Shown: positions 666-24,776 of the stretch, in pieces | Numbering within the stretch: position 1 is the first letter of the stretch | How the letters are laid out: every line of letters begins with the position of its first letter | Virus record (IMG/VR): IMGVR_UViG_3300007643_000002 | Span: 1-27,038 of that record | From: a virus | Lineage: Duplodnaviria; Caudoviricetes | DNA length: 27,038 nucleotides | Strand: one strand, 5' to 3' | Notes under the pieces: model-generated | What the model saw: only the letters and a program-made list of their open reading frames with translations | What the model was told of the DNA's origin: nothing | Databases searched by the model: none | Program-made: the position numbers and the translations under genes

Positions 666-3600
666 TTACGGCTTCATGCCGATCGCCTGCCAGCTGAACG
701 GCTCGGTGATCGCACCGGATGGTGCGTCGTCGATGCCGGGTCCGTGGAACACTTTGTCGTAGTGGACTTGGGTGGTTGTCTTGACGCTGTGCTGGACGAC
801 GAACAGATCGCTGGTGGTAGCAGCCTCGACATTGGCGACAAACGAGTAGCCGGTGTCGGCGAACGCTGCGGGGAACACGATGTCCCCGAGCGACGCGGTG
901 CCAGGCACGACACCCCACTGCATCCGCATGGTCCCGATATCGAAGTACCCGGACGCTGCCTGATCGTTAGTGACGAGGTCAGTGCTCGGGATGACGGTTT
1001 GCTGGCCGGCGTCGGGCATGACGACCGTGGATGTGGGGAGCTGCTTGACGGAAATGTTGTAGTACGAGGGGAAGATGTTGGAGGCGGCGGACGTCCCAAT
1101 CAGGATCGCTATTGAGTCACCGGCCACCAAGTCGCCAGACCAAGAAACAGGGACGGGGTGGTTCCTGTCGGCAGTGGCGTCGCCTTCGTTGAATCCGACG
1201 GCAAGCAGTTCAACGTCGTTGCGGGCGATCTGGACCAGTGAACGTGCGCCCACGGTGTTGTTGATGATGCCCAAGTTGACATCGATCTCGTAGCGGCCGT
1301 CGACAGCGACTGTGAGGGAGTCCGCCCCGATAGCGACATCGCTCGAATTGGAAACCGCTGGAGTGCTCAGATCAAGTTTCTGACCAGTTGGCAACAGTGC
1401 CGTAGCATCAGAGCTGGCCACCACGGCCACCGACCCCATGTTGCCTTCCTCTGTGGTCTCAGACTCGTTGAGATAGGCGTAAGCCAGTGATGTCGGGGTG
1501 ACCATCCCGGCCAGGACTGTTTGCCCGCCGCTGAATGTAGAGGCTGAGTCCTCGACCAACAGAACGATACCGATAGGCGAGACACCGGACTGGTCGGCGT
1601 TGTCCCTGTTGACGGTGATTTCGTTGACGCCAGTGATATAGATCGACGGGCGGTGGTCCGAAGCGTTCGGGGCGCTCGAACCGTTGCCGTGTGCAGCGTA
1701 GGCCGAACGGATCGCAGCGGTCGCCGGGACGACGGCGGCGCCAAGCTGAAGGACAGTCTGGTCATCCTGGAACGAGTAGAAATCAAGGTAGACCCTGCGG
1801 AAACTGCTGCCTTCGTCGATGTAGCGGATCGAGTTGATCGCCAACTGGCCCGTCGTCGGGGTTGTGCCTGTGATCAAGGTGTGTGACGTGGATGTCAGTT
1901 CGGTGAGCGGAGCTGTCTGGACTGGGTCCGTTGTCGAAGTTGCGCCGACAACGGACACGACCCACTGGCCAGCCGCGATGTCATCGGCCCGGAACTGAGT
2001 GCCTGCCGCATAGTTCGAGAAGTGGAACAACCCGTCGACCGACCCGTTGAGCTGTTCGCCTGCAGCGGGGGCCAGCGAGGCGGTGTTGGTGACGTCTTCG
2101 TTGGCGAAGAACACGATAGCGCCAGCGCCCGTAGCGGCAGGCAACACCTCAGCCACGGCACCGGCCGAAGAGTCGATCACCGTAGCGACAGCGGCCGACG
2201 CTGGGACGTATGGGTAATCCCAGTCTATGTCGAGCAGATCAATCGAATCGACGCGAGACACGTCCTCTGTGCCGAGCGCAGCGGCATCCGAATAGGCCGG
2301 GTACAGCCGCCAAGTCAAGGCACCAGCGACCCCGGTGAACGCCAACACCCACTCGAAATAGCCGTCCCGAGTCAACGTCGAAACCACCGACGGGGCAACC
2401 CCGGTTCCAAGCTGGGTGACAGTCGTCGAACCGTCAAACGGGTTCATCACGGCGGTCGCCAGATTCGCCGCAGCGAAATCAGCGGTCTGAACAGCGAACC
2501 CGTGGCCAGGCGTACCGACATCGGCAACCCGAACCCGGACATACTGGGTTCCGGTGACCGGAGCCGCCCCTGGCCCGGTGTAGAACCCGGCGTCTGTGCC
2601 GCTGTTGTCGGCAAGGCGAGTCGAGAACGAATTGTTCAGCCCAGCCTGAACCTGAATCGGAGTGTCAACGTTTGAAGTGCTCCACTGAGAAGCCTTCACC
2701 GTCAAATCGGTGAGCGGACTGTTGTTGACCTCGATCGCAACACCCGAACCGTCCACCGCGTAGACGCCCTCAGCCAAAGCCGGGTCAGGGGTGTCGGAAC
2801 CGTTGTAGTAGGCGGTTACATCAACCAGCGATGCCGTGGTGACCGCAGCTTGAATCTCGGCCAACGATGGCAGACCGGTCACGGCCGGGGCTACGGCGGT
2901 GTTGGTCAGGTGGGCCAGGTCGTTCCCTGCTGCCACGCCGAACACGTCGAGGCTGAGCTGGAAATCGTAGATCGGATTCATGCTGGCTTCCATCGGCGGA
3001 GCCAAAGTGGCCCCGTCGGTCAGCAGCCAGTACAGGTCATTAGGGCCACTGACAAAGGTGACGGTTACTGAGATGGTCTGACCTGCTGCCACGCTGATCG
3101 GCGCAGCGAACGACGCGACGTCGTTCGCCGACACAAACCCTCCACCAGCAGGGGCGGAAGCGGTGAAGTCGAGGGAGCTGCCCAGAAGGGTACCGCCGAG
3201 GCCAACCCCGTCATAAACATCGACACGTGCGACGTTCCCAGCAGTGTCCTGCGACGTGCTGACAGTAATCTCGCGGATCTCACCTGCAGCTGAATGCACG
3301 ATCGTCTGGTAAGCAGCGGCAGCGACAGCGAAAGCCAACGAGTCGACACCGTCAAGAGTCCGAAAACTCTCAACCGGAATCTCGCTCGGTTCGTTCAACC
3401 GGGTCACGGCACCGCTGCCATCAACGTCGTACACGTAGGTCGGGTTGTCGGCGTCGATGTCGGTGCCGGTGTAGTACAGCAGTACCCCGGTGATCGTGTT
3501 GGTCGTGACGTACGCCTGAACCTCGGTGTCGGTAGGCGCCTGCGGCAGAGCCGGAGCCAGGGCGGTATCGGTCACATGAACGCGGTCTAAAGCGGCGCCG

Positions 3601-3962
3601 CTGCCCGTACCAAGCGCAGTGACAGCGCCATTCGCATCAACCAGAAACAACGCCGTCGCCGGATCGGCCTCAACGTCAGTGCCGGTGTAGCGGACCAGCG
3701 CATCAACAATCGACCCCGCCGTGGTGAACACCGTGATCTCGGCCTCGGTCGGCTCACCCGGCACGGCAGGTGCGACCGACGTGTCATCGGCAAACTCTCG
3801 TGCCCGGCCATCAGCCTTCGCCTCGTTAGCGTCGATGATCACACCGAAAGAGATCAGGTCGGCGTCGATCTGGGCGAACTGTGCCGCCAGATCAGCAGCG
3901 ACCTGATTGTGCGTGTCCGTCGCAATGATTGGGTCTGGCGTGAAAGTCTTGTTCGTTGGCAT
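666..3962 (-). CDS. Large modular tail fibre/adhesin with three ~60-aa internal repeats and a C-terminal gp53-like domain
   Basis: 1098 aa, rich in A/T/G/V/D; AGGAG RBS. The C-terminal GYFDIGTMRMQWG..IVFPAAF..FSWQAIG matches the common fibre-tip (gp53-like) motif, and LTVAVDGRYEIDVNL resembles a C1q-like segment. Confidence 0.8.
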   Translation of the reverse strand: MPTNKTFTPDPIIATDTHNQVAADLAAQFAQIDADLISFGVIIDANEAKADGRAREFADDTSVAPAVPGEPTEAEITVFTTAGSIVDALVRYTGTDVEADPATALFLVDANGAVTALGTGSGAALDRVHVTDTALAPALPQAPTDTEVQAYVTTNTITGVLLYYTGTDIDADNPTYVYDVDGSGAVTRLNEPSEIPVESFRTLDGVDSLAFAVAAAAYQTIVHSAAGEIREITVSTSQDTAGNVARVDVYDGVGLGGTLLGSSLDFTASAPAGGGFVSANDVASFAAPISVAAGQTISVTVTFVSGPNDLYWLLTDGATLAPPMEASMNPIYDFQLSLDVFGVAAGNDLAHLTNTAVAPAVTGLPSLAEIQAAVTTASLVDVTAYYNGSDTPDPALAEGVYAVDGSGVAIEVNNSPLTDLTVKASQWSTSNVDTPIQVQAGLNNSFSTRLADNSGTDAGFYTGPGAAPVTGTQYVRVRVADVGTPGHGFAVQTADFAAANLATAVMNPFDGSTTVTQLGTGVAPSVVSTLTRDGYFEWVLAFTGVAGALTWRLYPAYSDAAALGTEDVSRVDSIDLLDIDWDYPYVPASAAVATVIDSSAGAVAEVLPAATGAGAIVFFANEDVTNTASLAPAAGEQLNGSVDGLFHFSNYAAGTQFRADDIAAGQWVVSVVGATSTTDPVQTAPLTELTSTSHTLITGTTPTTGQLAINSIRYIDEGSSFRRVYLDFYSFQDDQTVLQLGAAVVPATAAIRSAYAAHGNGSSAPNASDHRPSIYITGVNEITVNRDNADQSGVSPIGIVLLVEDSASTFSGGQTVLAGMVTPTSLAYAYLNESETTEEGNMGSVAVVASSDATALLPTGQKLDLSTPAVSNSSDVAIGADSLTVAVDGRYEIDVNLGIINNTVGARSLVQIARNDVELLAVGFNEGDATADRNHPVPVSWSGDLVAGDSIAILIGTSAASNIFPSYYNISVKQLPTSTVVMPDAGQQTVIPSTDLVTNDQAASGYFDIGTMRMQWGVVPGTASLGDIVFPAAFADTGYSFVANVEAATTSDLFVVQHSVKTTTQVHYDKVFHGPGIDDAPSGAITEPFSWQAIGMKP

Positions 3963-3975
3963 CAGCCAGCTCCTT

Positions 3976-4278
3976 CTAAGGGGTTAGAAATAGGTCGTCG
4001 GTCATAAACGGGTCGTGCGCCACTGGCGTCTGGTTTTCCCAGTCGGCCAACACGGTCGGGTCGGCGCCCATCAGACGCCACGTATCGCCCGTATCGGCAG
4101 TGACAGCGGTATCGCCGCGCTCTGCGTCGGTCAAGGTCACAAGGTCAGCGTTGGCGGGCACTTCGCCCCAGTGGTTGTTAGACACCGTCGGCGCCACCAC
4201 CAGAACACGGGCGTCGACCTGCGCCTGAGTAAGGCCAGTACCGCCACCGCCGCTACCGCCGAGGTAGACGTTGCTCAC
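3976..4278 (-). CDS. Short fibre-module virion protein
   Basis: 100 aa; Gly-rich start, then VPANADLVTLTDAERGDTAVTADTGDTWRL...W, a small module typical of phage fibres; GTGA overlap with the upstream gene. Confidence 0.65.
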   Translation of the reverse strand: MSNVYLGGSGGGGTGLTQAQVDARVLVVAPTVSNNHWGEVPANADLVTLTDAERGDTAVTADTGDTWRLMGADPTVLADWENQTPVAHDPFMTDDLFLTP

Positions 4279-4607
4279 CGGTCAGACTCGAACGTGAGAT
4301 CGCCGGCAGTCAGCGAGTGGACCGAAATGTCAAGGTCGCCGTTGGCCTGGACCAGCACCCTGACGTCGGCGTGTTGGACGTCCATGTTCCGTTCCTTCGC
4401 TTCCGCTGGGCAGTGTTCCTGATTGGGTGCCTGCGGGTCGGCCACGGTCCCGTCGAGCGCGACGGTCACAGGGTCGGTGTGCCCGTCCTTCACTAGGGTG
4501 AGCGTGGAACGGTGGTGTACCCCGGCGCTGTGCCCGAACCCTGTGAGTGTGAACGTTTCGGCGCCGGTCCCGCCGTGCGCCATGATTTGGGAATAGATAG
4601 ACGGCAT
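4275..4607 (-). CDS. Hypothetical beta-rich protein, probably virion-associated
   Basis: 110 aa; AGGAG RBS; coupled to the next gene by a GTGA overlap; His-rich. Confidence 0.65.
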   Translation of the reverse strand: MPSIYSQIMAHGGTGAETFTLTGFGHSAGVHHRSTLTLVKDGHTDPVTVALDGTVADPQAPNQEHCPAEAKERNMDVQHADVRVLVQANGDLDISVHSLTAGDLTFESDR

Positions 4608-4618
4608 GAAGCGCTCTC

Positions 4619-6526
4619 CTAAGGTAGTGATGTTTCGACAGTGAAACCGAGGAAAAGATTACGGTTGCCGCCCGCAAGTTTCCGGGCGTGACAAGTCAAA
4701 TCGGCCGCAAGGGCGGAACGGTTCATCACGCCACACTCGAACGTCGTCCGATACACGAGGTTGTTGGCGTTGGTGTTCGCAGTGGGGAACGCCGACCTGA
4801 GCGACTGATACACCGGCCGCCACTCCAGCAAGTTCACATTGTTCAGCCCGGCGTCCCACGAGTCAGAGTTGATCGCCGTGAGCAAACCGAACGCCACTTC
4901 GAAATCGGTGACGTCGGCGTTGTTGATCCGGTACCAGTAATGGATCCGTTCGACAACTGCGCCCGGTGGGATCATGATTGATGTGCGGTCGTTCTGGTTG
5001 CTGATATCCGGTGTCGCCCCGGTGCCCGAATCGTCAGACCAGACTTCGTTGTTGAGGCCCCACTGCTCGTTCATCCCGTACCACGTGTCGACGACGCTCA
5101 GCGTGTGGCGACCAGAATACGAATCTGTCGACAAGTACTTGGGTGCGGCGCCGCGGACGATCACAACCGGATTCTGATCCTCCGGATCAAACACCTGAAC
5201 AGGCGTGACTGCGTCCGAAGAAACGTTCTCGATGACGATAGGCGAACTGCCATCGGCGCCGATGCCGTATGGTGCGACCGAACGGACACGGACCGACGCC
5301 AGCGCAGCTGCCGCGCCGGTAGCGTTCGACACTTTTAGGTTGCGGACGGTCACGCCACCCTGGCCGATAGCCGCAGCGTACAGGTCGTCGTATCCGTCGA
5401 CCTCGAACCCGTCGATCAGAATGTTTGCGTCGTCCACGTCCGTGGCGTAGTTCACGCCCGGCTCCAAGATGCCGAGGACACCCTGCCCTGCGCCGCCATT
5501 CGGGCCAGCGGGCAGGTAGGTGGTGTCTTTCGAACGGCCGCCAAGAACGGTGATGTCGGTTACGCCGCGCTTGAACTCGATCGAGTCCGTTGTCATCCCT
5601 ACGAACTGCGGGTTGATGATCTCCAAATCGTGCGACTTGTCCTGCCCGATCGTCGCCGTCGAACCCTTACCCAGATATAGGCCCTCGAGCTCCTGCGGGT
5701 TCAAAGCGCCAACGTCGGCAGGGCCGACCTTCGGGCAGAGGATGCGCCCATACTCAGACCAAGTGCCAATGTCGCCAGTGAACGACTGCCACGCAATGTG
5801 CGCGGACCCGTCCGACAACGAACACTCGACGTGACCGATCACCGTAGGGTGCTCGGCCGTGCCCTTCACGCCCTGATATCGAATGTTGTCGAACCCGCCG
5901 ACCACCTTCACATTCTCAACCCAAACGTGAGCGACCTCGCCCACATCGATCGTCGGGTTAGCGGCAGTACCACCCATCAGGACATCGGGGTCGGCAGTGA
6001 ACCTCACCGGCTTGCCCGGTGTGCCGCCAACCATCGGGTTAGCACGGCCAGAGAACAGGTCGCCACGCATGTCGAAGTAGCCGACAATCTGAGCGCCCGT
6101 CCCACCGTCCGGGTGGCGCAGATGAACAACATCGCCCGCAGCTATCGAGGCTGCAGTCTTGAGTGCGTCGAGTTCGGCGGCGGTGTTGATGACGTGACGT
6201 GTTCCGCCCGTGGCCGGGTCGACGATTTGCGACTGGCCGCACGTCGGACACTCGAGCGGTAGCGCCGGGTCGATCCAGTGTCCCTCATACTTGGCGAACT
6301 TCTTACCGTCCGGGCAGCGGACGTTCGTAACGAACACCTCTACATCATCAACCAGAGCGTCATACGGCAGCTGCGTCAGTCGCCGCGGCGCCGTCGGAAC
6401 CCACTTGGCTGTGGCCGTGCTGTAGCGAACAGAGTTGCCCGCGACGGTCGCCTCGAACCCGTCGAGCGGCGTGACGGGCAGTGAAGCCACATCGGCGACA
6501 ACAGAGTCGGGCAGTATCCACGCCAT
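4619..6526 (-). CDS. Right-handed parallel beta-helix protein (putative polysaccharide depolymerase/tailspike)
   Basis: 635 aa; INTAAEL..A..AGDVVHL, GTPGKPVRFTA, EGLYLGKG and TDSIEFKRG are typical of pectin-lyase-fold proteins; N-terminal fibre module and a CPTC motif. Confidence 0.75.
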   Translation of the reverse strand: MAWILPDSVVADVASLPVTPLDGFEATVAGNSVRYSTATAKWVPTAPRRLTQLPYDALVDDVEVFVTNVRCPDGKKFAKYEGHWIDPALPLECPTCGQSQIVDPATGGTRHVINTAAELDALKTAASIAAGDVVHLRHPDGGTGAQIVGYFDMRGDLFSGRANPMVGGTPGKPVRFTADPDVLMGGTAANPTIDVGEVAHVWVENVKVVGGFDNIRYQGVKGTAEHPTVIGHVECSLSDGSAHIAWQSFTGDIGTWSEYGRILCPKVGPADVGALNPQELEGLYLGKGSTATIGQDKSHDLEIINPQFVGMTTDSIEFKRGVTDITVLGGRSKDTTYLPAGPNGGAGQGVLGILEPGVNYATDVDDANILIDGFEVDGYDDLYAAAIGQGGVTVRNLKVSNATGAAAALASVRVRSVAPYGIGADGSSPIVIENVSSDAVTPVQVFDPEDQNPVVIVRGAAPKYLSTDSYSGRHTLSVVDTWYGMNEQWGLNNEVWSDDSGTGATPDISNQNDRTSIMIPPGAVVERIHYWYRINNADVTDFEVAFGLLTAINSDSWDAGLNNVNLLEWRPVYQSLRSAFPTANTNANNLVYRTTFECGVMNRSALAADLTCHARKLAGGNRNLFLGFTVETSLP

Positions 6527-8020
6527 TTATGAGACTCCAGTGAGTGAAATGGTTGCGTTCAAATCTTCAGGCGGTGTCGCCCCGTCGGCGACGGTTACGA
6601 TCGCCCGGAACTGGTCGCCAGCCACGACAGCCTCGCCGATGTTGTCGACGGCGTTACCGACAACATCGGCCCCGACAATCGTCAACACCGGGTTCGCAGC
6701 GAATGCTGTGACTCTGCGTTCAAGTTCGACGGTGAAAGCGTTGTTCGAATCGTTGCTGGTGATGGCCATGCTGAACTTGTCGAGCGTCCCGCTAACCGGG
6801 CAAGCAATCCAGTTGGTGAAGTAGCCGACGCCGATCGTGCCGTCTCGGCTGCCGAGGTTCAGGGTCGTTGAGTTGGTCGCAGCCGCCGCAGTCGCCCCGG
6901 TCGCCTTATCGATCGACTCGTGCCGCAACAGACCGGTCGCCGAGTTTGTCCACTTCTCCCAGACACCGCCACCCCAAACCTCGAACGCCACCTTGGAGAC
7001 ACCGAAGGGCGCTTCAAGCTCCCAGTAGGTGTTATCGTCCGGCTGATAGCGGGTACGGATGTACGTGTCAACCTCGGCGTCGGAAATTATGGTGCTCTCA
7101 GCGTTCGGCTGTTCGGCGTACTCAACCGTCGAGAAACCACGACCAATAGACATATTAAACCGGGTGCCGGTAGACCCCTGGGTGCCGAAATTGAAGTTGG
7201 CATTACGGACATGCAGCCCATCGATGTTCGCAAGCCCTGGGCAGTCCCAGCGGAACTGAGCGCCAGCCCCGCCATCGTCCAGGTTTTTCTCCCAGTAGCA
7301 GTCGGTGACCCAAATGCCCCGCATCGGCAACCCGGTCACGTCTGCGGCGTCAACCTCGACGACGAGGCCCTCACGTTGGTTCCCTTCAAACGTGCAGTGA
7401 TTAATGGAGACGGCGACGCCTTGTCGGATCAGCGCACCCTGAGCGCCGTTCGTTTGAATGCGACACCCCATGAGGCGCATCGTTGTATTTCGCCCAGCGG
7501 TAACAACAGCAGGGTCGGACATGAAGCCAACCCCAAGGTTCTCGTACAAGTCGCATTCGTTCATTTTAAGAAAGACGACTTGAGCGGCGAACACTCCCGA
7601 CCTGACGCACCCGGTCACGTCGACACGATCCATGACCGACGACCCGGACTTGAAGCCGCCCGTCCCGTCGCCTAGCTGTATGCCGTCGATACCGACACCG
7701 CCCCCGTCAACCGTCAAGTCTCGAAGGACAGACCGGAGCGTTCTGATAGAGCCGCCCCCGACCTTGATCCCGGTTGGGCCACTGAAACGCAGCCTCGTCG
7801 CGGCAGCCGAAACACCCTCGATCACAACGTCGTCGTGGAGTTGTAGGGTGCTCGCCAGACGCAGCGGCCCAGCGGGCAGCAAGACCTTCCCCGGCTCGCC
7901 GCCCGCTATGTCAGCGGCCCGCTGGATCGCTGCGTTAATTCCTGGCACTGCGTCGGTTGTGTCATCCGCTACTACGTTGGCGTGGACGTCTCCCCGACTA
8001 ACAGAAGATCTAACAAGCAT
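6527..8020 (-). CDS. Pectate_lyase_3-like beta-helix protein (putative depolymerase)
   Basis: 497 aa; DDTTDAVPGINAAI...KVLLPAG.LRL.STLQL..DVVIEG opening motif, followed by repeated beta-helix coils (CDLYEN, CRIQTN, CTFEGN, CYWEKN). Confidence 0.8.
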   Translation of the reverse strand: MLVRSSVSRGDVHANVVADDTTDAVPGINAAIQRAADIAGGEPGKVLLPAGPLRLASTLQLHDDVVIEGVSAAATRLRFSGPTGIKVGGGSIRTLRSVLRDLTVDGGGVGIDGIQLGDGTGGFKSGSSVMDRVDVTGCVRSGVFAAQVVFLKMNECDLYENLGVGFMSDPAVVTAGRNTTMRLMGCRIQTNGAQGALIRQGVAVSINHCTFEGNQREGLVVEVDAADVTGLPMRGIWVTDCYWEKNLDDGGAGAQFRWDCPGLANIDGLHVRNANFNFGTQGSTGTRFNMSIGRGFSTVEYAEQPNAESTIISDAEVDTYIRTRYQPDDNTYWELEAPFGVSKVAFEVWGGGVWEKWTNSATGLLRHESIDKATGATAAAATNSTTLNLGSRDGTIGVGYFTNWIACPVSGTLDKFSMAITSNDSNNAFTVELERRVTAFAANPVLTIVGADVVGNAVDNIGEAVVAGDQFRAIVTVADGATPPEDLNATISLTGVS

Positions 8021-8029
8021 TGGCTGTCC

Positions 8030-10708
8030 TTAGTTAGTGACGACGTTCCAGCCGTTGGTCGTGAGGGTCGCTGCGTCGAGAAGGCCCGCTGCTGATGGTG
8101 CGGCGTTGACAGGTCCATCGAGAGTCAACTCTTGGGAGCCGACCGGGGTGACGGCAGCGGCGACCATGTCCGCCAATAGCTGGTCGATTTCGGTCTGTGT
8201 GAGCCCACCTGCAGATGCAGCACTGTATGACAGGTCCAGGGCTGTATTTATGGCTGGAGCAAACGACGTCGGCCATGTCACCGTTGAAGGCGTCATGGCG
8301 AGAGTGAACGTGAGTAGCCCCGCAGGGGCTTGGTCTGCGGGGCCAGAGATAATCGAATCGCCGACGTCGAGCCTCAACCTCGTGAGCCCTGCAGGCAGGT
8401 CCGTCGTGGCGCTGGTGATCACCGTGTTCGACTGGTGGGTCTGGAACGAAGTCAAACCCACAGGCAACTCCAGCCCGGTACCAGTGACCGCTACCTGAGT
8501 GAGGAACGCCGCGAATACTGTTAGCCCAGCGGGGAGAGCGGCCGCAGCGATTGTCAATGTCGAATTGGTTTCGTCGATTTGGACGTTCGTCAGCCCAGCG
8601 GGGAGGGTCGTACCACCGATGTTGCTGCCGGTGTTGCTGAGTAGTAGTGAGGTCAACCCTGCTGGCAGGTTCCCGCCCGTGGGGTCTTGAATGTTGCTGT
8701 TGCTGTTGTTGGCTCTCAGCGTCGTCATGCCTGTTGGCAGGTCTGCGGCGTTGCCGATGATCGACGCAGGCGTATTGAAAGCGTCGAGGATGGTGAGGGT
8801 TCGTGGCAGGTCTGCCGTGCCGCCAGAAAGCGTTGAAGCTGTGCCGTCGATCTGGAGTCTGGTCAACGTTGAGGGCAGATCAGAGACCCCGACGTTTAGG
8901 CCCCATTCGGGCTGGCCGAGCATGTTGATTCGTGTGATGTCAACAGATGTCCGCCACCTGAGCTGCACTGCGCCCGTGTATGCGGCGCCGTAGGTGTGGC
9001 TGTCTGTGCCCCCGGAGGCCGGGTTGGTGACGGTTCCGTCGCCCCACACGAACTGCACGTCGGTCGGTGTTCCAACGTATTCGACGATGACGTTCAGAGT
9101 AGAGGCTGCTACCGCCGCGAAGTTTAGGGTTTGCCACTGGGATACGACGGTTGATGGCGTGCAATTGAAAGGAGCCGACCCGGTGATGCGTGCCTTGTAT
9201 TCGCCCGCCAACGCGTCGGGTGCGAACATGATCGATACCGGCGCATCCGGGGCGGCCCCCAACTGACTCCATTTCGGCAGTACATAATCGCCGGTCGCTT
9301 GCTCGATCAAGATCACTGACGTAACCATGTCGAAGTTGTGGGCGATGTCGACGTTGTTTCCAGCAGGTATGTCTGCTTCTGGCGCCGCGGTCACCACCGG
9401 GCAGTTGAGAGCCCCATACTGAACGCCGACGGGCTCAAGCGAAATTGTCGTCCCGCCATCGAGTGTGACCACATCAAACTGGACAGACGTGTCGCCGCCG
9501 ACGGTAGAAAGATCGCCCAACGTTTCGGCCCACACGCCCTCGGTTTGTCTCCAGTCGAAGACTCGTCCGCCAGTGGCGTCCTGAAGTACTTTCACCCGGA
9601 TTCGTTGCGCCTTGTTATCTGCAGCGGGGTCCCACCCGGTAAACGACAACGGTGAAACGTCCCCGACGAGTGTGAGTTCCGCCGCGTCGTGCCCGGTTAC
9701 GTTCAAGACATAGCCGCCCGTCGCATCTTCTCGTGTGACGGTGACCAGATCGGATGGGATTAGGGGATCTTCGAACGGTGGCGGAACAGTCAGGTTCGTG
9801 CCTGAATGAGTCCACGCTTCGGCTGCTACCGGATTCGGAAAATTGACGATCGCCAAGCCGCCGACCGTTATGGTCGCCCTCTCAACCGTGCCCCGAATAC
9901 ACTCCCTGCCATCGGCCACGCCAGTCCCCAACCGAAACCGAGAACCCACATGAACGGGGACCAACCCATTGAAGAGAGTGACGAAAGGGAAGCTAACGGT
10001 CTCAAGGATTGTGAAGTCCTGCTCTTGGCTGTGTGATATGACTTCGTGTTTCTGTGACGCCACAGAAACGTCGACCTCGATCGTCGCTCCTAGGTGACGA
10101 AAGTCGAGACGAATCAGTAGCTTGCGTGCATCAGTTATCCCAACGTCGTAGACCGTCGAAACGGTCGTCCTCTGCGCCCCGGCAATCCCGTCGTCTGACC
10201 CGTACAGCTGAACCTGGCCGGTGGCGGACAGCCTCGCCGCCCAAGCCCGCAAATCTCCTGCGGTGATGTACTGCCCCAATATTCCCTGGTTGCCGTTCGA
10301 GTAGTCGTCAGAAAGGACAAGCCCCTCAGCCCGAAAATCAACCTGGGGGACCTGGATGGCAGCGCCGCTGATTATGTCCTGACCGCCCCCCGTCGCCAAC
10401 ACAACTGGCGGCTGCTTGGCGAACCAGCGATGTAGGTTGCCGTTGGTGTCTACCCGGTATTCCCACACGTCGCCGTTGGCGTCTGGGAAATCAGCGGTCG
10501 GACGCCACTTCGCTGTGACGCCGTCGGACTCGACCAGCTCGTGGCTGATGTTGTTGTCGATCGTCGTGTAGATCGTCCCGACATGAGCGGCCGTCAGGGT
10601 CGGCAGAGCAGCAGCGTTCGCCACTTTCGGGTAGCCGAAGTCGCGTAGCTCCGCCTGGACCCCATCGCCGACTGCCTGTAGATGTTGATCGACGATACGG
10701 TCAGGCAT
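8030..10708 (-). CDS. Modular adhesin: fibre N-terminus, lectin-like beta domain, PKD-like domain and leucine-rich repeats
   Basis: 892 aa; FVWGDGT...SHTY (PKD-like) followed by nine ~23-aa xLPxxLTxL repeats and a capping segment ending LTTNGWNVVTN. Confidence 0.75.
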   Translation of the reverse strand: MPDRIVDQHLQAVGDGVQAELRDFGYPKVANAAALPTLTAAHVGTIYTTIDNNISHELVESDGVTAKWRPTADFPDANGDVWEYRVDTNGNLHRWFAKQPPVVLATGGGQDIISGAAIQVPQVDFRAEGLVLSDDYSNGNQGILGQYITAGDLRAWAARLSATGQVQLYGSDDGIAGAQRTTVSTVYDVGITDARKLLIRLDFRHLGATIEVDVSVASQKHEVISHSQEQDFTILETVSFPFVTLFNGLVPVHVGSRFRLGTGVADGRECIRGTVERATITVGGLAIVNFPNPVAAEAWTHSGTNLTVPPPFEDPLIPSDLVTVTREDATGGYVLNVTGHDAAELTLVGDVSPLSFTGWDPAADNKAQRIRVKVLQDATGGRVFDWRQTEGVWAETLGDLSTVGGDTSVQFDVVTLDGGTTISLEPVGVQYGALNCPVVTAAPEADIPAGNNVDIAHNFDMVTSVILIEQATGDYVLPKWSQLGAAPDAPVSIMFAPDALAGEYKARITGSAPFNCTPSTVVSQWQTLNFAAVAASTLNVIVEYVGTPTDVQFVWGDGTVTNPASGGTDSHTYGAAYTGAVQLRWRTSVDITRINMLGQPEWGLNVGVSDLPSTLTRLQIDGTASTLSGGTADLPRTLTILDAFNTPASIIGNAADLPTGMTTLRANNSNSNIQDPTGGNLPAGLTSLLLSNTGSNIGGTTLPAGLTNVQIDETNSTLTIAAAALPAGLTVFAAFLTQVAVTGTGLELPVGLTSFQTHQSNTVITSATTDLPAGLTRLRLDVGDSIISGPADQAPAGLLTFTLAMTPSTVTWPTSFAPAINTALDLSYSAASAGGLTQTEIDQLLADMVAAAVTPVGSQELTLDGPVNAAPSAAGLLDAATLTTNGWNVVTN
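8280..8885 (-). repeat. Nine ~21-24-aa LRR-like protein repeats
   Basis: Repeat starts: DLPSTLTRL, DLPRTLTIL, DLPTGMTTL, NLPAGLTSL, TLPAGLTNV, ALPAGLTVF, ELPVGLTSF, DLPAGLTRL, QAPAGLLTF. Confidence 0.85.
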
Positions 10709-11617
10709 TTAACCGGCGAACCAGTACGTGCAGCGGTAGCCATTCAAGGCCGGAGTGGTCAGCGTGTTGATCACAATGTTCGTGTCATCGTTCGTCACAT
10801 CAGCACCGACCCGAGCGTCATCAGATTCACGAGTGATCTGCACAACAAGCTGATGCCCGGCCAGGCCGACGATGCCGTGAGCGACAGTGAACGTTTGCGC
10901 CGCAGCATCACCGAACAAGAAGGACCCGCCACGGTTGTCGATCATCGTGTCGACATCGGTAACCGTCGGCACCGACAACGCAGCGTTAGCCACAATCTCG
11001 GCCGCAGTCGCCAGACGAACAACACCCTCGACCGTTGTCGTGGCCGAAGTGACACCAGCAGACGGCCCGATAGTCGACCACGCCTGAGCGTCAGTGCCGA
11101 CCGTGACATCGTCAGCGGTCTGCATCATCAGCTTGTCTTGATTGGCCGTTCCCTCTTCGACAGCGACAACCGCGGCGTCAGCCTCCGAACCGCCATCAAG
11201 ATCGGTGACCCGAGTCATCGGAACGGCCGCGCCGTTCCACAGGTAAATGCCGTTCTCGATCGGGTCGGTATTCCCGCCGATCAACAAACGATCACCAGCG
11301 ACCATCGCCACGCCATCGATCGTCGCGCCAGGCGCAGCGATCGGAACATCAACAGCGAGCTCGGCGGCACGAACAGCGGCCTTGACGTTGTTGACCTGCT
11401 GATCGATCAGCTTCCGCCACTTGTTGTTGACAGCATCCCAATAGGCGATACAACCCGAGGCCGTCACGTACGCGATTTCACCGGCAGTGTTGCCCGTGGT
11501 TGTGGCGTTCATTGCCGCTTCGGAACCGAACGGGCGCCAACCGAACTGGAGCAGCTTGGCCCGGTCTACACCAGTACCATCCGCTTGGAGATCGACATCA
11601 ATAATCTGGTCAGGCAT
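10709..11617 (-). CDS. Fibre/decoration-type virion protein
   Basis: 302 aa; VKAAVRAA...TIDGV.MVAGDRLL...ENGIY...TRVTD is a widespread phage fibre/decoration motif; ATTTVEGVVRLAT is a tail-fibre repeat; GGGGAG RBS. Confidence 0.75.
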   Translation of the reverse strand: MPDQIIDVDLQADGTGVDRAKLLQFGWRPFGSEAAMNATTTGNTAGEIAYVTASGCIAYWDAVNNKWRKLIDQQVNNVKAAVRAAELAVDVPIAAPGATIDGVAMVAGDRLLIGGNTDPIENGIYLWNGAAVPMTRVTDLDGGSEADAAVVAVEEGTANQDKLMMQTADDVTVGTDAQAWSTIGPSAGVTSATTTVEGVVRLATAAEIVANAALSVPTVTDVDTMIDNRGGSFLFGDAAAQTFTVAHGIVGLAGHQLVVQITRESDDARVGADVTNDDTNIVINTLTTPALNGYRCTYWFAG

Positions 11618-19584: not shown

Positions 19585-20046
19585 TTAGCTTTCTAGATGT
19601 ATCTCTGTACGAAGAACCGACTGAGCGGCCCACAACTCTTGACCCGCATTAACCTGCAGGAACCTAAACCCACCGACACGCTCAAACACCGGAACCGGCG
19701 CCTGAGGCACCCACAACGGGTCATTGACGATCGGCCGCAACGGCCGACGGCCAGCAACATAATTCGACCAGTGATCGGCCAGCGGGCCGACATGATCGGC
19801 CCCCGGCGCACCAGCAGCAAACAAAACCTCGAACCGGCAAATCGCATGACAACCAGGAGAATCCTCGGTCCCATCGATAAACGGTTCATCCTCAAGCAAC
19901 GTGACCGTCGCGCCGTTCCCGACCTCCCACGGCCAATGAGCCGTAGCAGGCGTAACACCAGAATGCTCACCGAAACCACGGGCCAACTCACGGAGAATCA
20001 CGTCACGCAGCACCGTCACCGGGCCGTGAAAATCCCGCAACTGCAT
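19585..20046 (-). CDS. Tail terminator/completion protein (putative)
   Basis: 153 aa between the adaptor and the tube protein; TGATG overlap; assigned by position and size. Confidence 0.55.
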   Translation of the reverse strand: MQLRDFHGPVTVLRDVILRELARGFGEHSGVTPATAHWPWEVGNGATVTLLEDEPFIDGTEDSPGCHAICRFEVLFAAGAPGADHVGPLADHWSNYVAGRRPLRPIVNDPLWVPQAPVPVFERVGGFRFLQVNAGQELWAAQSVLRTEIHLES

Positions 20047-20654
20047 CAGGCCACACCAACCCGCAGCCAGTTAGCCAGAAGCTCGCGGACATCGGGGTCA
20101 TACTTTGATACTCGGATGGCGCCGCCAAACGCCGAAGCGCCCAACGTCCCATCAGGCGACATGCGCCGGCGGTACAGGCGTGCGGCGTGCATCGTCGTCG
20201 CCAGATTCACCCTCACCGGAACATCACACAACACCGGCACGACACCGTCGGCCAGGGCCACACCATCGGCATCAACGTTGACACCATCGGCGTCCTGAAG
20301 GATGTACGGCAACCCGGTGTCTTCGCTTATGTCATCGATCGCCGCCAACGTGGCCAGCTCGAGCGCACCAGTGTTCGCCGTCTCGTCTTGGCCCATCGCC
20401 GCGCCGACACCCTCGGAATGCGCCCACTGCTGAACGTCCTCATATGTGGGCCACGGGCAGTGCGGCACATTACTACGCTTCAGGTTCTCGGCCCGCGCCT
20501 CGTCCGCGCTAACCGCAGAACAGGCACAGAAGCTCGTACAGCCACAAGTTAGAAACAAGTTGCGAACCACCCAATCTTTGTGCTGGTCGGCCACACGGGA
20601 GCCGTAGGTCCCGGAGACGCCCCACGCCTGCCGGGTCCACTCCTGAAAAGCCAC
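20046..20654 (-). CDS. Head-tail adaptor (SPP1 gp15/HK97 gp6-like) with a ~65-aa N-terminal extension
   Basis: WPTYEDVQQW...VPVRVNLATTMHAARLYRRRMSPDG...YDPDVRELL is the typical actinophage adaptor signature; GTG start coupled by a TAGTG overlap. Confidence 0.85.
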   Translation of the reverse strand: MAFQEWTRQAWGVSGTYGSRVADQHKDWVVRNLFLTCGCTSFCACSAVSADEARAENLKRSNVPHCPWPTYEDVQQWAHSEGVGAAMGQDETANTGALELATLAAIDDISEDTGLPYILQDADGVNVDADGVALADGVVPVLCDVPVRVNLATTMHAARLYRRRMSPDGTLGASAFGGAIRVSKYDPDVRELLANWLRVGVA

Positions 20655-20848
20655 TAGCCCTCGACGTCAGCCTTGGCCCTGGCGGCACGCTTCTTAGGCT
20701 CAGCTACAGCGGCGGCCTTGCGCTTCAGGAACTCGCCCATCGATTCGACGACGAACCCACCGGCCGATGCCGACTGCGCTACAGCTGGGCGTTTGCCGTC
20801 GTGCTCTTTGAGGTACGAACCCATCGTTCCAACCTTGAAATCAGTCAT
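20654..20848 (-). CDS. Small post-capsid protein with an internal duplicated motif
   Basis: 64 aa; AGGAG RBS; FKVGTMGSYLK / FVVESMGEFLK repeat and a basic tail. Confidence 0.75.
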   Translation of the reverse strand: MTDFKVGTMGSYLKEHDGKRPAVAQSASAGGFVVESMGEFLKRKAAAVAEPKKRAARAKADVEG

Positions 20849-20861
20849 CGTTCAAACTCCT

Positions 20862-20922
20862 AAATAGAAAACCGGGGATCCCCTGGGGCAACAAAAACCC
20901 CGGTAATCACCGCCCCAGGGGA
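20862..20922 (-). terminator. Putative intrinsic terminator/attenuator after the capsid gene, built from interleaved inverted repeats
   Basis: Arms 20879-20889/20912-20922 (11 bp) and 20871-20877/20898-20904 (7 bp); on the mRNA they are followed by UUUCUAUUU. Confidence 0.6.
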
Positions 20923-20934
20923 GAAACACCAAGG

Positions 20935-22290
20935 TCAGACAGTGACCTGAGCAAACGCCTCTTCACACTGGATGGCAAAGCCAACCATGCGCTCAGCCAA
21001 GATCAGGACCAGGTTCCGACGGAACCAGTCTTTGTGCTGATCAGCGAAGTAAACCTGGATCGGTGAAGCGTCGGCAATCATCGCCCAACGGAAATCGCCG
21101 ATCAGCTGAGTGCCCACAGGAACAGCCTCGGTGATGACCGGAGTCATCCCCCAAGGGTTCAGGTTCGCTGGCGAAGACGCCGGCCCGCCGAACTGCCAGT
21201 TGCCGTTGCCATCGACCGAACCGAGGAACTCGGTTGAGTTCCAATCGACCGGGTTGATGATGATCGCCGACGGGTTGAACATTCCCTCGAACGACTGGGA
21301 GATAAGGCCCATTGCCGAGAGGATCGCCTGGAAGCGGTTACCGCCACCGACTGACACTGAGTGAATGTTTGCGTAGGGGTTGGTCGTGTTGAACACGCCC
21401 CGCAGGTTCGGGCTGGTGCCGTCGCCCTGCAAGAAACCAACCTCTTCGTTGACGCCGAGGCCGTCGACAAGAAAGGTCCTGACCACGTTCTCAACCCGAG
21501 GTGCGACCACAATCGACTGCCGAGTCATCGGCACCCAATGGGCGATCGTCTCGACAGTGCCAGTCACAACATCCCAGTCAAGGGCCGACTCCGGCTTGTA
21601 GCCGTTCGCCGCGTCCTCCGGGAGACCGTCAGCGGTAGAGGTCGACTCGGCAACAAACGCAGCGTTGTTGGTTCGCGACGTCAGCACCGGGTACTTCCAC
21701 CCGACGCCTGATACCTGCTCGACGTTGCAAATCTGCCGCATCCAAGTGCGCCGCATCGGCGCCTTGTCGAGGCCCGGCAGAGTAGTCGGTTCCACGAGGG
21801 GAACGCCACCGGTGCCGGTCGAGACGTCTGGCGATGTGATCAGAGCGTTACTGATCATGCCGTTACGGTCGAAGTTGTTGAACTCGAACTTGCCAGACTG
21901 GCCGTGCCAGTTGTCCGACAGGGCACCATCGACGCCCTTGGCCTGCTGTATCTCCTGGTAGGCGGGCGAGTTAACGAACGCCTCACCCATCGACATGCCG
22001 TTGGTCGGGAGAGTGATGCCGGACTGGGCCGCCATCTTCTCCTCGCGAGACTCGCCCTCGGCGGGTGCGTTCAGGCCGAGGCCCTTGAAAAACTCGCCGG
22101 TTGCCTTCAGTGAGCCAGACGCCTCGGCCTGGGTCTTCACCTGGGCCATCAGTTCGCCGGCCTCATTGGCCATTGCCTGCAGCTTCACGAGGTCGTCAGA
22201 CGACGGTTCGCTATCGGTAAACGATGCCTCGAAATTGACGGCCTCGGTGTACTTCTCTTCAGCGCGTTCGCGCAAAGTCAAACCACTCAT
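20935..22290 (-). CDS. Major capsid protein, HK97 family with N-terminal delta (scaffold) domain
   Basis: 451 aa; TNNAAFVAE...KPES...VETIAHW, GDGTSPNLRG, WGMTPVITEAVPVGTQLIGDF and RNLVLILAER parallel HK97 gp5; AAGGAG RBS. Confidence 0.95.
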   Translation of the reverse strand: MSGLTLRERAEEKYTEAVNFEASFTDSEPSSDDLVKLQAMANEAGELMAQVKTQAEASGSLKATGEFFKGLGLNAPAEGESREEKMAAQSGITLPTNGMSMGEAFVNSPAYQEIQQAKGVDGALSDNWHGQSGKFEFNNFDRNGMISNALITSPDVSTGTGGVPLVEPTTLPGLDKAPMRRTWMRQICNVEQVSGVGWKYPVLTSRTNNAAFVAESTSTADGLPEDAANGYKPESALDWDVVTGTVETIAHWVPMTRQSIVVAPRVENVVRTFLVDGLGVNEEVGFLQGDGTSPNLRGVFNTTNPYANIHSVSVGGGNRFQAILSAMGLISQSFEGMFNPSAIIINPVDWNSTEFLGSVDGNGNWQFGGPASSPANLNPWGMTPVITEAVPVGTQLIGDFRWAMIADASPIQVYFADQHKDWFRRNLVLILAERMVGFAIQCEEAFAQVTV

Positions 22291-22326: not shown

Positions 22327-23226
22327 CTAAATTTGGGCGAAATCCGCAGCAAGACGCTGCAGCCTCATCCCAGCAACCACCCGCTCAGCGCGCAGCCTCG
22401 CCTCGGCGCCTGCGGCCGTAGCGGCAGGGACCTCGGCGTCGGGGCATGCATCACTGGTGGAATCAACACCGGCAGCGCCATTGCTGCCAGCGACTTTCCC
22501 GAACAAAGCAGCGTCCCACAAAGCCGTGGGTTCGCCTCCATCGCTGTCCGGTTTCGACTTCAACGGGGCAGCCCGATCGGCAAGCCCGCGCTCCACGGCC
22601 TCGGCCGCGTACATCCAAGTTTCGTTCCGCATCAACTGCCGGAACTCGGCGACATCGCCACCAGCACGGGCAGCGTAAAACTCTGCGATCATGTCCGACG
22701 CCTTATCGAGCCGGGAAGCGTAAGCTTCCAACTCCTCGGCGTTGCCCCAAGTGACACCCCAAGCATCATGGATCATAAGCTCGGCGCCACGGTTCACCGT
22801 GACCGTCTCACCCGCCATAGCAATAACCGAGGCAATCGAATACGCCGCCCCATCAACCACAACGTCAACCGCCGCAGGATGATCGGCGATCAGGTTATGA
22901 ATCGCTAGACCCTCGGCGACTTCACCGCCGGGCGAATTGATCCGAACTGTCAGGCGTTCGACGTCGCCGATCTCGTCGAGGCCAGCGCGGACATCGTCCG
23001 CGCTGATACCCCAGTATCCGCCCCATGAGTCGATGGCATCGTAGATCATGAGTTCGCCACCCGATGCGGTAGCGGCGCCGGTGTCGGCCTGTTCTTCGAA
23101 CAGTTCAGCCTTAAACCTGGCGCCGTCCGGCCGTTCAGCCTTGACGATCTTGTCGGCCACGTCCCGAGGCATCGCCCCGGCGACGACTGAGGCTTTCATA
23201 GCTCCGCGCTTCTGATGCAGATTCAT
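22327..23226 (-). CDS. ClpP-type (S14) head maturation protease
   Basis: VRINSPGGEV, DGAAYSIASVIAMAG (catalytic Ser region), LMIHDAW (His) and ETWMYAAEAVERGLAD. Confidence 0.93.
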   Translation of the reverse strand: MNLHQKRGAMKASVVAGAMPRDVADKIVKAERPDGARFKAELFEEQADTGAATASGGELMIYDAIDSWGGYWGISADDVRAGLDEIGDVERLTVRINSPGGEVAEGLAIHNLIADHPAAVDVVVDGAAYSIASVIAMAGETVTVNRGAELMIHDAWGVTWGNAEELEAYASRLDKASDMIAEFYAARAGGDVAEFRQLMRNETWMYAAEAVERGLADRAAPLKSKPDSDGGEPTALWDAALFGKVAGSNGAAGVDSTSDACPDAEVPAATAAGAEARLRAERVVAGMRLQRLAADFAQI

Positions 23227-24776
23227 AAATCCAGCTCCTTCAAGCCCGCCCGCAAATCCTTAACCGACCCACCAGCACCCAACAAACGCCCATGCAAACC
23301 AGACACCGCCTCCGCAGCAGCCGCAGGCAAACCCTCAACCACAACCGCCACATCAACGCCCTCAAGCGACTCCTGCCGAGACAGGCGCCCCATCACCGTC
23401 GAGGCCGCCGTCCGCGCTGCAGGCGAATCCTCGGCATCGTCGACGCCGCCGACCGAGCCGTCCTTATCCAGATCACGGCCGCCAGCCTCATCCAACGCCA
23501 CAAGCGCCGCATTCACCAACGGACGATCACCGCCAGGGAGCGGCACCAAATTATCCTCACCACGAATCTCATTGACAGTCCGCTGGGCAGTCTGCAACTG
23601 AACTGAACGGGTCTGCGCCAACGCCTCCGGTGAACCACGCAACACCTTCGACTCCATGTGATCCATGAAGAACGCCGAACCGTAATCAGGTTCACCGCCC
23701 GCACCATGACGGCCATCACGCAAATCGTGATCCACCACCGACTCAAACCGCCGCAAATGCGGCTGCATCGTCGTGCGCAACACATCCCGCAACAACTCTT
23801 CAACGTTGTTGAAAGTCGCCCGCTCCAAATCATGCAACGCCGGCGGAGTCAAATCGAACACCGCACCAACCTCACGGTCAGTCAGCTTCCGCAACTCCAA
23901 ATACTCCAGGCCCTTCTCGATCCGAAGTTCCTTGATATCAACGCCGCCATCGAGAACCAAAGGTTTCTGCCAGTTCGCAACGCCGCCATGCGCCGCCTGG
24001 ACCTTGTCTTGAATCTGCTGGATAATCGCCGGACGGTTAGAGAAATCGTCGTCAGAAGTCAGAGCGAACGCAGGCCGCGCCCCCCGCTTCCACATCGACT
24101 CCATAGCCTGCCTGGCCGAACCGTCATCCTCAAGAGTCCCACGAAGAGACTCCAACTTAGAGAGACCCCACTCTTCGTTGTCGGGGTTGAAGTTCTTCAA
24201 CACCACAAGGTCACGGCGCGCTATCTGAAACTCCACACCATGCGCCAACTGATACCACCAGAAGCAACCCGTATCAAGCTCGTGCTCAGTCAGCCTGGCC
24301 CGGTCGGCGACCTTCCAACACTGCCCCTGCTCCGCGCCGTACCGCATACGCCCCGGGTGAAACACCAACAACTCGGTAGGGCGGCCGAGGCCATCGCGCT
24401 GCTTGGCCGCAAACGCAGTGCCATGCAGATAGTAGAAATGTAGGAACCGATCCCAGAACTCGGCCGCAGACATCCGAGACGGGCAAGGGTCCGCCATCAA
24501 CCTGCCCAGCGGAGAGTCAGGCGCTTCAGACTTCACGCCATCAGACGCCCGCCTGAACACACCAATCGGGATCATCGCGTGAAGCGAAGAGAGCTTGTCG
24601 ACCACTTTCCGCACCGACGGCTGACACCGATACATGTGGTCATAGGATGATTGCCGGTACAGCGTCAGTAGCGGGTGGGCAGCGTTACCGCCGGCCCCAG
24701 TCCACTCGAGCGGCGACGACCACGGCCCAGTGGCCGATGTCGTGACCGTCTGGCCGCCAGTGCCGAAGACGGCCAC
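23223..24776 (-). CDS. Portal protein, HK97 family
   Basis: 517 aa; FNPDNEEWGLSKLESL, LVLDGG, ATFNNVEE and TVNEIRGEDNLVPLPGGD are HK97-type portal motifs. Confidence 0.95.
   Translation of the reverse strand: MAVFGTGGQTVTTSATGPWSSPLEWTGAGGNAAHPLLTLYRQSSYDHMYRCQPSVRKVVDKLSSLHAMIPIGVFRRASDGVKSEAPDSPLGRLMADPCPSRMSAAEFWDRFLHFYYLHGTAFAAKQRDGLGRPTELLVFHPGRMRYGAEQGQCWKVADRARLTEHELDTGCFWWYQLAHGVEFQIARRDLVVLKNFNPDNEEWGLSKLESLRGTLEDDGSARQAMESMWKRGARPAFALTSDDDFSNRPAIIQQIQDKVQAAHGGVANWQKPLVLDGGVDIKELRIEKGLEYLELRKLTDREVGAVFDLTPPALHDLERATFNNVEELLRDVLRTTMQPHLRRFESVVDHDLRDGRHGAGGEPDYGSAFFMDHMESKVLRGSPEALAQTRSVQLQTAQRTVNEIRGEDNLVPLPGGDRPLVNAALVALDEAGGRDLDKDGSVGGVDDAEDSPAARTAASTVMGRLSRQESLEGVDVAVVVEGLPAAAAEAVSGLHGRLLGAGGSVKDLRAGLKELDL

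Follow-up and report, generated by a model that had tools for sequence, protein, structure and literature searches.

What happens, in a phage head closed by covalent chainmail, to the crosslinking sites around the portal? A portal in place of a penton must leave some of these sites unpaired, and the available text of the papers cited here does not state their fate. The question is raised by a phage contig of 27,038 bases (the window, that is, the whole stretch of DNA analysed), whose minus-strand morphogenesis module has the order terminase, portal, ClpP-type protease, capsid, a 64-aa ORF, a 202-aa adaptor ORF and tail genes. The adaptor gene, lying between the capsid and the tail-completion genes, encodes a near-copy of the capsid segment which in HK97 holds the crosslinked Asn. 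The features concerned are the following.

23223..24776, minus strand: portal protein (PF04860)
22327..23226, minus strand: ClpP-type head maturation protease (family matches)
20935..22290, minus strand: HK97-like major capsid protein, 451 aa, with a helical N-terminal scaffold region
21595..21597, minus strand: capsid K232 (HK97 K169, the E-loop lysine and predicted partner; alignment to HK97 gp5)
21004..21045, minus strand: capsid P-loop, residues 416-429, ADQHKDWFRRNLVL (translation)
21013-21015, minus strand: codon of capsid N426 (HK97 N356)
20992..20994, minus strand: capsid E433 (HK97 E363, catalytic; alignment to HK97 gp5)
20654..20848, minus strand: small Lys/Ala-rich ORF, 64 aa, whose TAG overlaps the adaptor GTG
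20046..20654, minus strand: adaptor ORF, 202 aa, with a gp6/gp15-like core and an N-terminal arm
20457..20654, minus strand: N-terminal arm, about residues 1-66 (P-loop copy, Cys-rich stretch, predicted helix 50-61)
20550..20591, minus strand: copy of the capsid P-loop on the adaptor arm, residues 22-35, ADQHKDWVVRNLFL (translation)
20559-20561, minus strand: codon of adaptor N32
20520-20546, minus strand: Cys-rich stretch C37-C45, CxCxxxCxC, a possible metal site or disulfide knot
20046..20456, minus strand: gp6/gp15-like adaptor core, residues 67-202 (phrog_5938 and superposition on 3JVO)
19585..20046, minus strand: probable tail terminator, immediately after the adaptor (TM 0.66-0.71 to gp17/tail terminator clusters)

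The preliminary description of this DNA had reported that adaptor residues 22-35 and capsid residues 416-429 agree at 11 of 14 positions, with six synonymous codon differences (GCT/GCC, GAT/GAC, GAC/GAT, CGG/CGC, CTG/TTG and CTG/CTA) and with an Asn and a Cys at adaptor residues 32 and 39. All of this is correct, and 30 of the 42 nucleotides are identical. The similarity is confined to the 14-residue peptide, the flanks being unrelated. A chance origin can be rejected, since in the six frames of the window no other 14-mer, self-matches and this diagonal aside, agrees with the capsid at more than 8/14. We also rejected the template and variable repeats of a diversity-generating retroelement (adenine is involved in 1 of the 12 differences) and a capsid-adaptor fusion via the repeats, in which E433 and the last capsid strands would be lost. 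The idea that Cys39 is a meaningful counterpart of the catalytic Glu did not survive: across 36 arms, G, C, P, A and D occur at this position, but no E.

That the capsid segment holds the equivalent of HK97 N356, as had been stated, is well founded. The capsid aligns with HK97 gp5 (E 3e-29), placing K232, N426 and E433 on K169, N356 and E363, and this triad is invariant in 59/59 aligned homologues (P0067 omitted); no Cys is invariant across them. The capsid model has the HK97 fold, with D3, phiXacJX1 and HK97 as best matches (E about 1e-23). In this model a helical tip (420-424) sits between two strands (403-416 and 427-440), which is why we take the copied segment to be the P-loop. Two of the three residues of the HK97 hydrophobic pocket, given as V163/M339/L361 in the available text of 10.1101/2022.09.09.507160, are kept (V213 and L431), with S409 in place of M339. 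We infer that the capsid of the window crosslinks in the manner of HK97. The incomplete pocket counts against a crosslink, as does, just before K232, an E-loop insertion of 13 residues (about 21598-21645, minus strand), whose length varies across homologues.

The other partner is harder to recognise. The adaptor has no Pfam match, and neither Foldseek nor a profile of the adaptor run against PDB sequences gave a significant match. Its residues 143-202 match phrog_5938, a head-tail connector family (E 1.1e-9), and residues 67-198 superpose on HK97 gp6 (3JVO; Z 8.2, rmsd 3.4, 91 aligned residues). Among the top rows of the core superposition, 32 of 33 are neck proteins or neck assemblies, the remaining one being B. 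subtilis YqbG. The core, as modelled, thus has the gp6 helical-bundle fold. Residues 1-54 of the arm, folded alone, have a pLDDT below 50. Does this arm belong to the protein at all? Translation from the downstream GTG at 20468 would remove the copy, a possibility that we reject: the arm is kept in 11/11 homologues from the first search, and the upstream GTG is tied to the stop codon of the small ORF. The upstream GTG is favoured as the start because it overlaps or abuts this stop across loci (the window, L043, L107 and L179).

Some further observations concern the neighbourhood. There is no stopper gene between the adaptor and the probable tail terminator (19585-20654, minus strand), and the order is the same in L043 and L179; stopper-less necks are described for Jabs, T5 and DT57C in the available text of 10.64898/2026.07.24.740622. 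The 64-aa ORF contains an internal repeat (FKVGTMGSYLK / FVVESMGEFLK). At the corresponding place, L043, L107 (again with a repeat) and L179 have small ORFs that resemble it. A tail of this kind is also fused to the C-terminus of capsid P0024, which suggests, from sequence, that the product is a capsid-associated peptide. The spacer between the capsid gene and the small ORF (20849-20934) has complementary CCCCTGGGG / GGGGATCCCC tracts, possibly forming a hairpin, and many differences in a related strain. Finally, the tail-fibre/receptor region (666-11617, minus strand) is unusually large, with ORFs of 1098, 635, 497 (beta-helix), 892 and 302 aa, most of them without family matches. A search for related loci in viral, metagenome and genome contigs gave no confirmed relative.

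The arm is not peculiar to the window. The first homologue search gave 11 adaptors, all arm-bearing; a profile search added four with the motif, one whose start falls immediately behind it and one from a different class; and the best 150 of 892 matches in a 50% library gave 145 new representatives, 19 of them arm-bearing. In total, the arm of about 60 residues with the capsid copy is present on at least 36 adaptors, with 26-62% identity to that of the window; near-copies with the motif (P0073/75/76) and sequences with a later called start or cut (P0074/P0085) stand outside this set. A DNA scan with a degenerate motif found 179 loci, of which three are adaptors and the remainder capsid motifs or chance matches. 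In L043 and L179 the capsid and the adaptor occur together, in the gene order of the window. Among annotated phages we found only weak C-terminal matches, to Arthrobacter and Pseudomonas phage adaptors, and no cultured phage with this arm-bearing adaptor.

The preliminary description had made its reading depend on the peptide and its Asn persisting in homologues, and they do. Numbering from the Asn, Arg-1 is present in 36/36 arms, Asn in 35/36, Asp-5 in 35/36 and Phe-3 in 32/36 (the window arm has Val at this last position). Over columns -10 to +3 the arms resemble the capsids closely (D 35/36 vs 56/58, F 32/36 vs 55/58, N 35/36 vs 58/58). The likeness ends before the catalytic Glu, which at +7 is found in 0/36 arms vs 58/58 capsids, the copy terminating one to three residues past the Asn. 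With a profile of the capsid P-loop, the 36 arms rank above the other 126 adaptors scanned, a partly circular result since the 36 had been picked beforehand by pattern. The linker from the Asn to the core has 26-38 residues in 36/36 arms, which suggests, as far as sequences go, a fixed reach. In related strains, the 10 changes listed in the arm region (4 synonymous, 6 nonsynonymous, no indel and no stop) include V29M within the copy and leave N32 unchanged; they are too few for selection on the arm to be measurable.

However conserved where present, the arm is not generally needed. Of 28 adaptors that lack the motif but share the core start, 14 are interspersed with arm-bearing adaptors in the core tree (10 changes, with starts as called), and in L002, L003/L124 and L034 a similar capsid P-loop stands beside an adaptor of another class without the copy. 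Arg-1 and Asp-5 are conserved at least as well as the Asn, which may therefore be structural.

Does each arm follow its own capsid? The co-variation that the preliminary description had suggested looking for is there. In 13 pairs, the arm agrees with its own capsid at 9.46 of 14 positions on average, vs 7.18 for the capsids of others, a difference reached in 0 of 200,000 permutations (permuting removes relatedness only in part). With nine pairs, one per lineage, the figures are 9.44 vs 7.24 of 14 and 12 of 200,000. Three of the 13 pairs (window, L043 and L179) are joined on DNA and ten are inferred from equal length of the longest contig; the set of 13 and the set of nine both include the discordant pair P0083/P0078. 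The shared peculiarities are sometimes striking, such as W and NM in P0003/P0015, SNRD-FERN in P0011/P0082 and DSHSDFF-RNIL in L043. Position -8 agrees in 13/13 pairs (Q/Q in six, S/S in seven), both motif-free trees require more than one change there, and the arms of P0007 and P0010 track their capsids rather than their adaptor relatives. This is not a lock and key: 7 of the 13 arms match no other capsid better than their own, and the P0083 arm (SNRDYFERN, own capsid SHRDFFTRN) fits the capsid of another lineage better. P0012 and P0083 share a 90% cluster and are paired with similar capsids, yet P0012 has SHVDYFTRN where P0083 has SNRDYFERN, and outside this arm motif the two hardly differ; the arm may have been exchanged.

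The earlier argument from synonymous codons to selection on the peptide is valid for the window, where 4 of 10 degenerate codons are identical (4.7 expected), and does not extend to L043 (10/11, 7.7 expected) or L179 (7/9, 4.7 expected). These last two together share 17/20 degenerate codons vs 12.4 expected (P 0.006, pooled post hoc), and all three loci give P 0.06. The excess in L043 and L179 is a hint, from sequence, that the capsid gene at times serves as the template for a fresh copy of the arm. In L043 the two copies (3532-3580 and 3992-4035) are identical at 37/42 nucleotides, possibly by recent gene conversion.

One could then ask whether the repeat is simply held alike at the DNA level by gene conversion or recombination, the peptide being functionless. 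The codon sharing in L043 and L179 speaks for such a process. However, synonymous sites are saturated between the window copies; the copy is always in frame, in the same place and with the same boundary, its residues being kept at 26% overall identity; and conversion might refresh the arm yet would leave its retention unexplained. We find this explanation hardly credible. On the sequence evidence, the peptide is a real, conserved and co-varying capsid mimic on a gp6-type adaptor.

What could such a mimic do? According to the available text of the sources, neighbouring capsomers are linked by an isopeptide bond between the Lys of an E-loop and the Asn of a P-domain, with a Glu from a third subunit as catalyst (10.1101/2022.09.09.507160; PMC12749128; PMC13595954). 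E-loops overlie the P-domain of a neighbour in the same capsomer (PMC13595954; 10.1101/626804). P-loops close the local threefold, the P-loop residues N360 and F364 of D3 (arm positions -7 and -3) belonging to a triad kept there, and the crosslink acceptor lies beneath the E-loop (PMC12749128).

We propose that the P-loop copy stands in for the P-loop of the missing penton at the five local threefolds that surround the portal. Each of these would contain one intact hexon-hexon bond, one Lys and Glu site without Asn, and one lone Asn. If the catalytic third subunit is the neighbour under the E-loop, the Lys and Glu would come from the same hexon, the Asn alone being missing, and the arm peptide, having an Asn and no Glu, would complete this site; the lone Asn would not be simply completable. 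Five of the 12 arms would reach these sites through their 26-38-residue linkers, and Asn32 would become isopeptide-bonded to Lys232 of the neighbouring hexon with capsid Glu433 as the predicted catalyst, after packaging, fixing the neck to the expanded head. An isopeptide bond is plausible because the hexon Lys and Glu would be present and the Asn alone absent. The absence of Glu from the arm fits the three-subunit geometry of HK97 and thus does not weaken the crosslink reading, and the absence of any E-loop (Lys) copy, sought in the window, L043 and L179, is expected if completion is possible only at sites lacking the Asn. The access of a late-arriving peptide is uncertain, since the acceptor lies under the E-loop. 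We consider it probable that the arm docks at the portal vertex, and put the chances of a covalent Asn32-Lys232 bond between adaptor and capsid at about even.

The same docking could also work without a bond, the arm completing the P-loop trimer at the five portal-adjacent threefolds and bridging the 12:5 mismatch. Conservation of the Asn is matched by that of D, F and R, and the P0008 arm has Gly in the position of the Asn (its capsid is not in the data). Bond-free contacts between adaptor and capsid are described for Douge (PMC13033339), R4C (PMC10276861) and Jabs (10.64898/2026.07.24.740622), and the portal vertex protein of P74-26 replaces lost penton contacts (PMC12407722), in the available text of these papers. 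Nevertheless, we think this rather unlikely: the Asn persists in all arms except that of P0008 and the copy ends right after it, and a docked P-loop would presumably place this Asn beside a free Lys and Glu. Cysteines might form the actual link, by disulfides or a metal site, the copy merely positioning them; four to six Cys follow the motif in 12/36 arms, and neck 1 of Milano is disulfide-bonded to the capsid in 5/12 subunits (PMC10491603, available text). Yet the other 24 arms keep the motif with two Cys or fewer, which makes this very improbable.

Another possibility is that the copy binds a different partner of the P-loop (a scaffold domain, the small upstream protein or a packaging component), perhaps as an assembly decoy or checkpoint. 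A shared partner would equally produce co-variation, and the small ORF is always immediately upstream of the adaptor. In the D3 Prohead 1, the available text of PMC12749128 has the P-loop Phe binding the P-domain-associated region of the scaffold. However, in the established pathway adaptors bind after scaffold removal and packaging (PMC12407722), and the arm is tethered beside the sole vertex with vacant P-loop sites; we judge this improbable. The reading in which the copy replaces the penton P-loop and is isopeptide-bonded to Lys232 could, to us, go either way. In evolutionary terms, it is conceivable, at a little under even chances, that the adaptor captured 14 capsid codons, keeps them matched (possibly refreshed by DNA copying) and offers them as a substrate to the autocatalytic crosslinking of the capsid, with five subunits serving as covalent chainmail links that lock the tail junction onto the matured head.

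If this is true, a phage protein mimics its own capsid to enter an autocatalytic reaction, the attachment of a 12-fold neck to a fivefold vertex is explained by sequence identity, and the tail connection is stitched into the chainmail of the head. Arm-bearing adaptors would offer a specific answer for the unpaired sites, in the form of one residue pair (K232-N32), and would suggest that a short peptide can attach covalently to HK97-type shells at vacant sites.

How does this compare with known systems? The preliminary description knew of no described example, which is too broad as regards covalent neck-capsid links: in Milano, 5/12 subunits of the adaptor neck 1 gp14 are tied to the capsid. 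It holds for the route by sequence copy and isopeptide, absent from the available text of the literature searched. We found no published adaptor with a copy of capsid sequence there (mostly non-subscription literature, with the phiXacJX1 and Bxb1 structure papers and supplements outside its scope), and the available text on JBD30 (PMC11445458), the HK97 prohead portal vertex (PMC10275583) and NF5 (PMC12917162) has nothing further on a neck-capsid copy or link. The Milano disulfides come from a beta-sandwich loop, with no capsid-sequence copy reported in the text available (PMC10491603). The adaptor extensions of R4C/RcGTA (attachment domain, PMC10276861), Douge (C-arm, PMC13033339) and Jabs (beta-domain, 10.64898/2026.07.24.740622) also contact the capsid across the 12:5 mismatch, by unrelated folds and variable contacts, and no mimicry is reported in what is available of these papers. 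In P74-26, five copies of the portal vertex protein offset the contacts lost with the penton by joining the P-domain sheet of the major capsid protein; this protein is separate and non-covalent and, in the available text, no capsid copy (PMC12407722).

The chainmail of HK97 and D3 has the same fold, triad and P-loop segment (K169-N356 by E363; K178-N367 in D3). There, the acceptor comes from capsid subunits only, whereas here a candidate acceptor is also found on the adaptor. HK97 gp6 itself has no such arm, since its alignment starts at its residue 7, opposite residue 67 of the window adaptor. Another parallel is the vertex protein of Nocturne116, which is not the major capsid protein and gives only an Asn to the Lys of the latter at the vertices, a heteromeric isopeptide seen by cryo-EM (PMC13595954, available text). 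The window arm, at the sequence level, likewise has an acceptor Asn without an E-loop Lys. The carriers differ: in Nocturne116 it is a full HK97-fold paralogue, at 11 pentons (PMC13595954), and in the window a gp6-fold neck protein with a 14-residue copy, which would act at the portal vertex.
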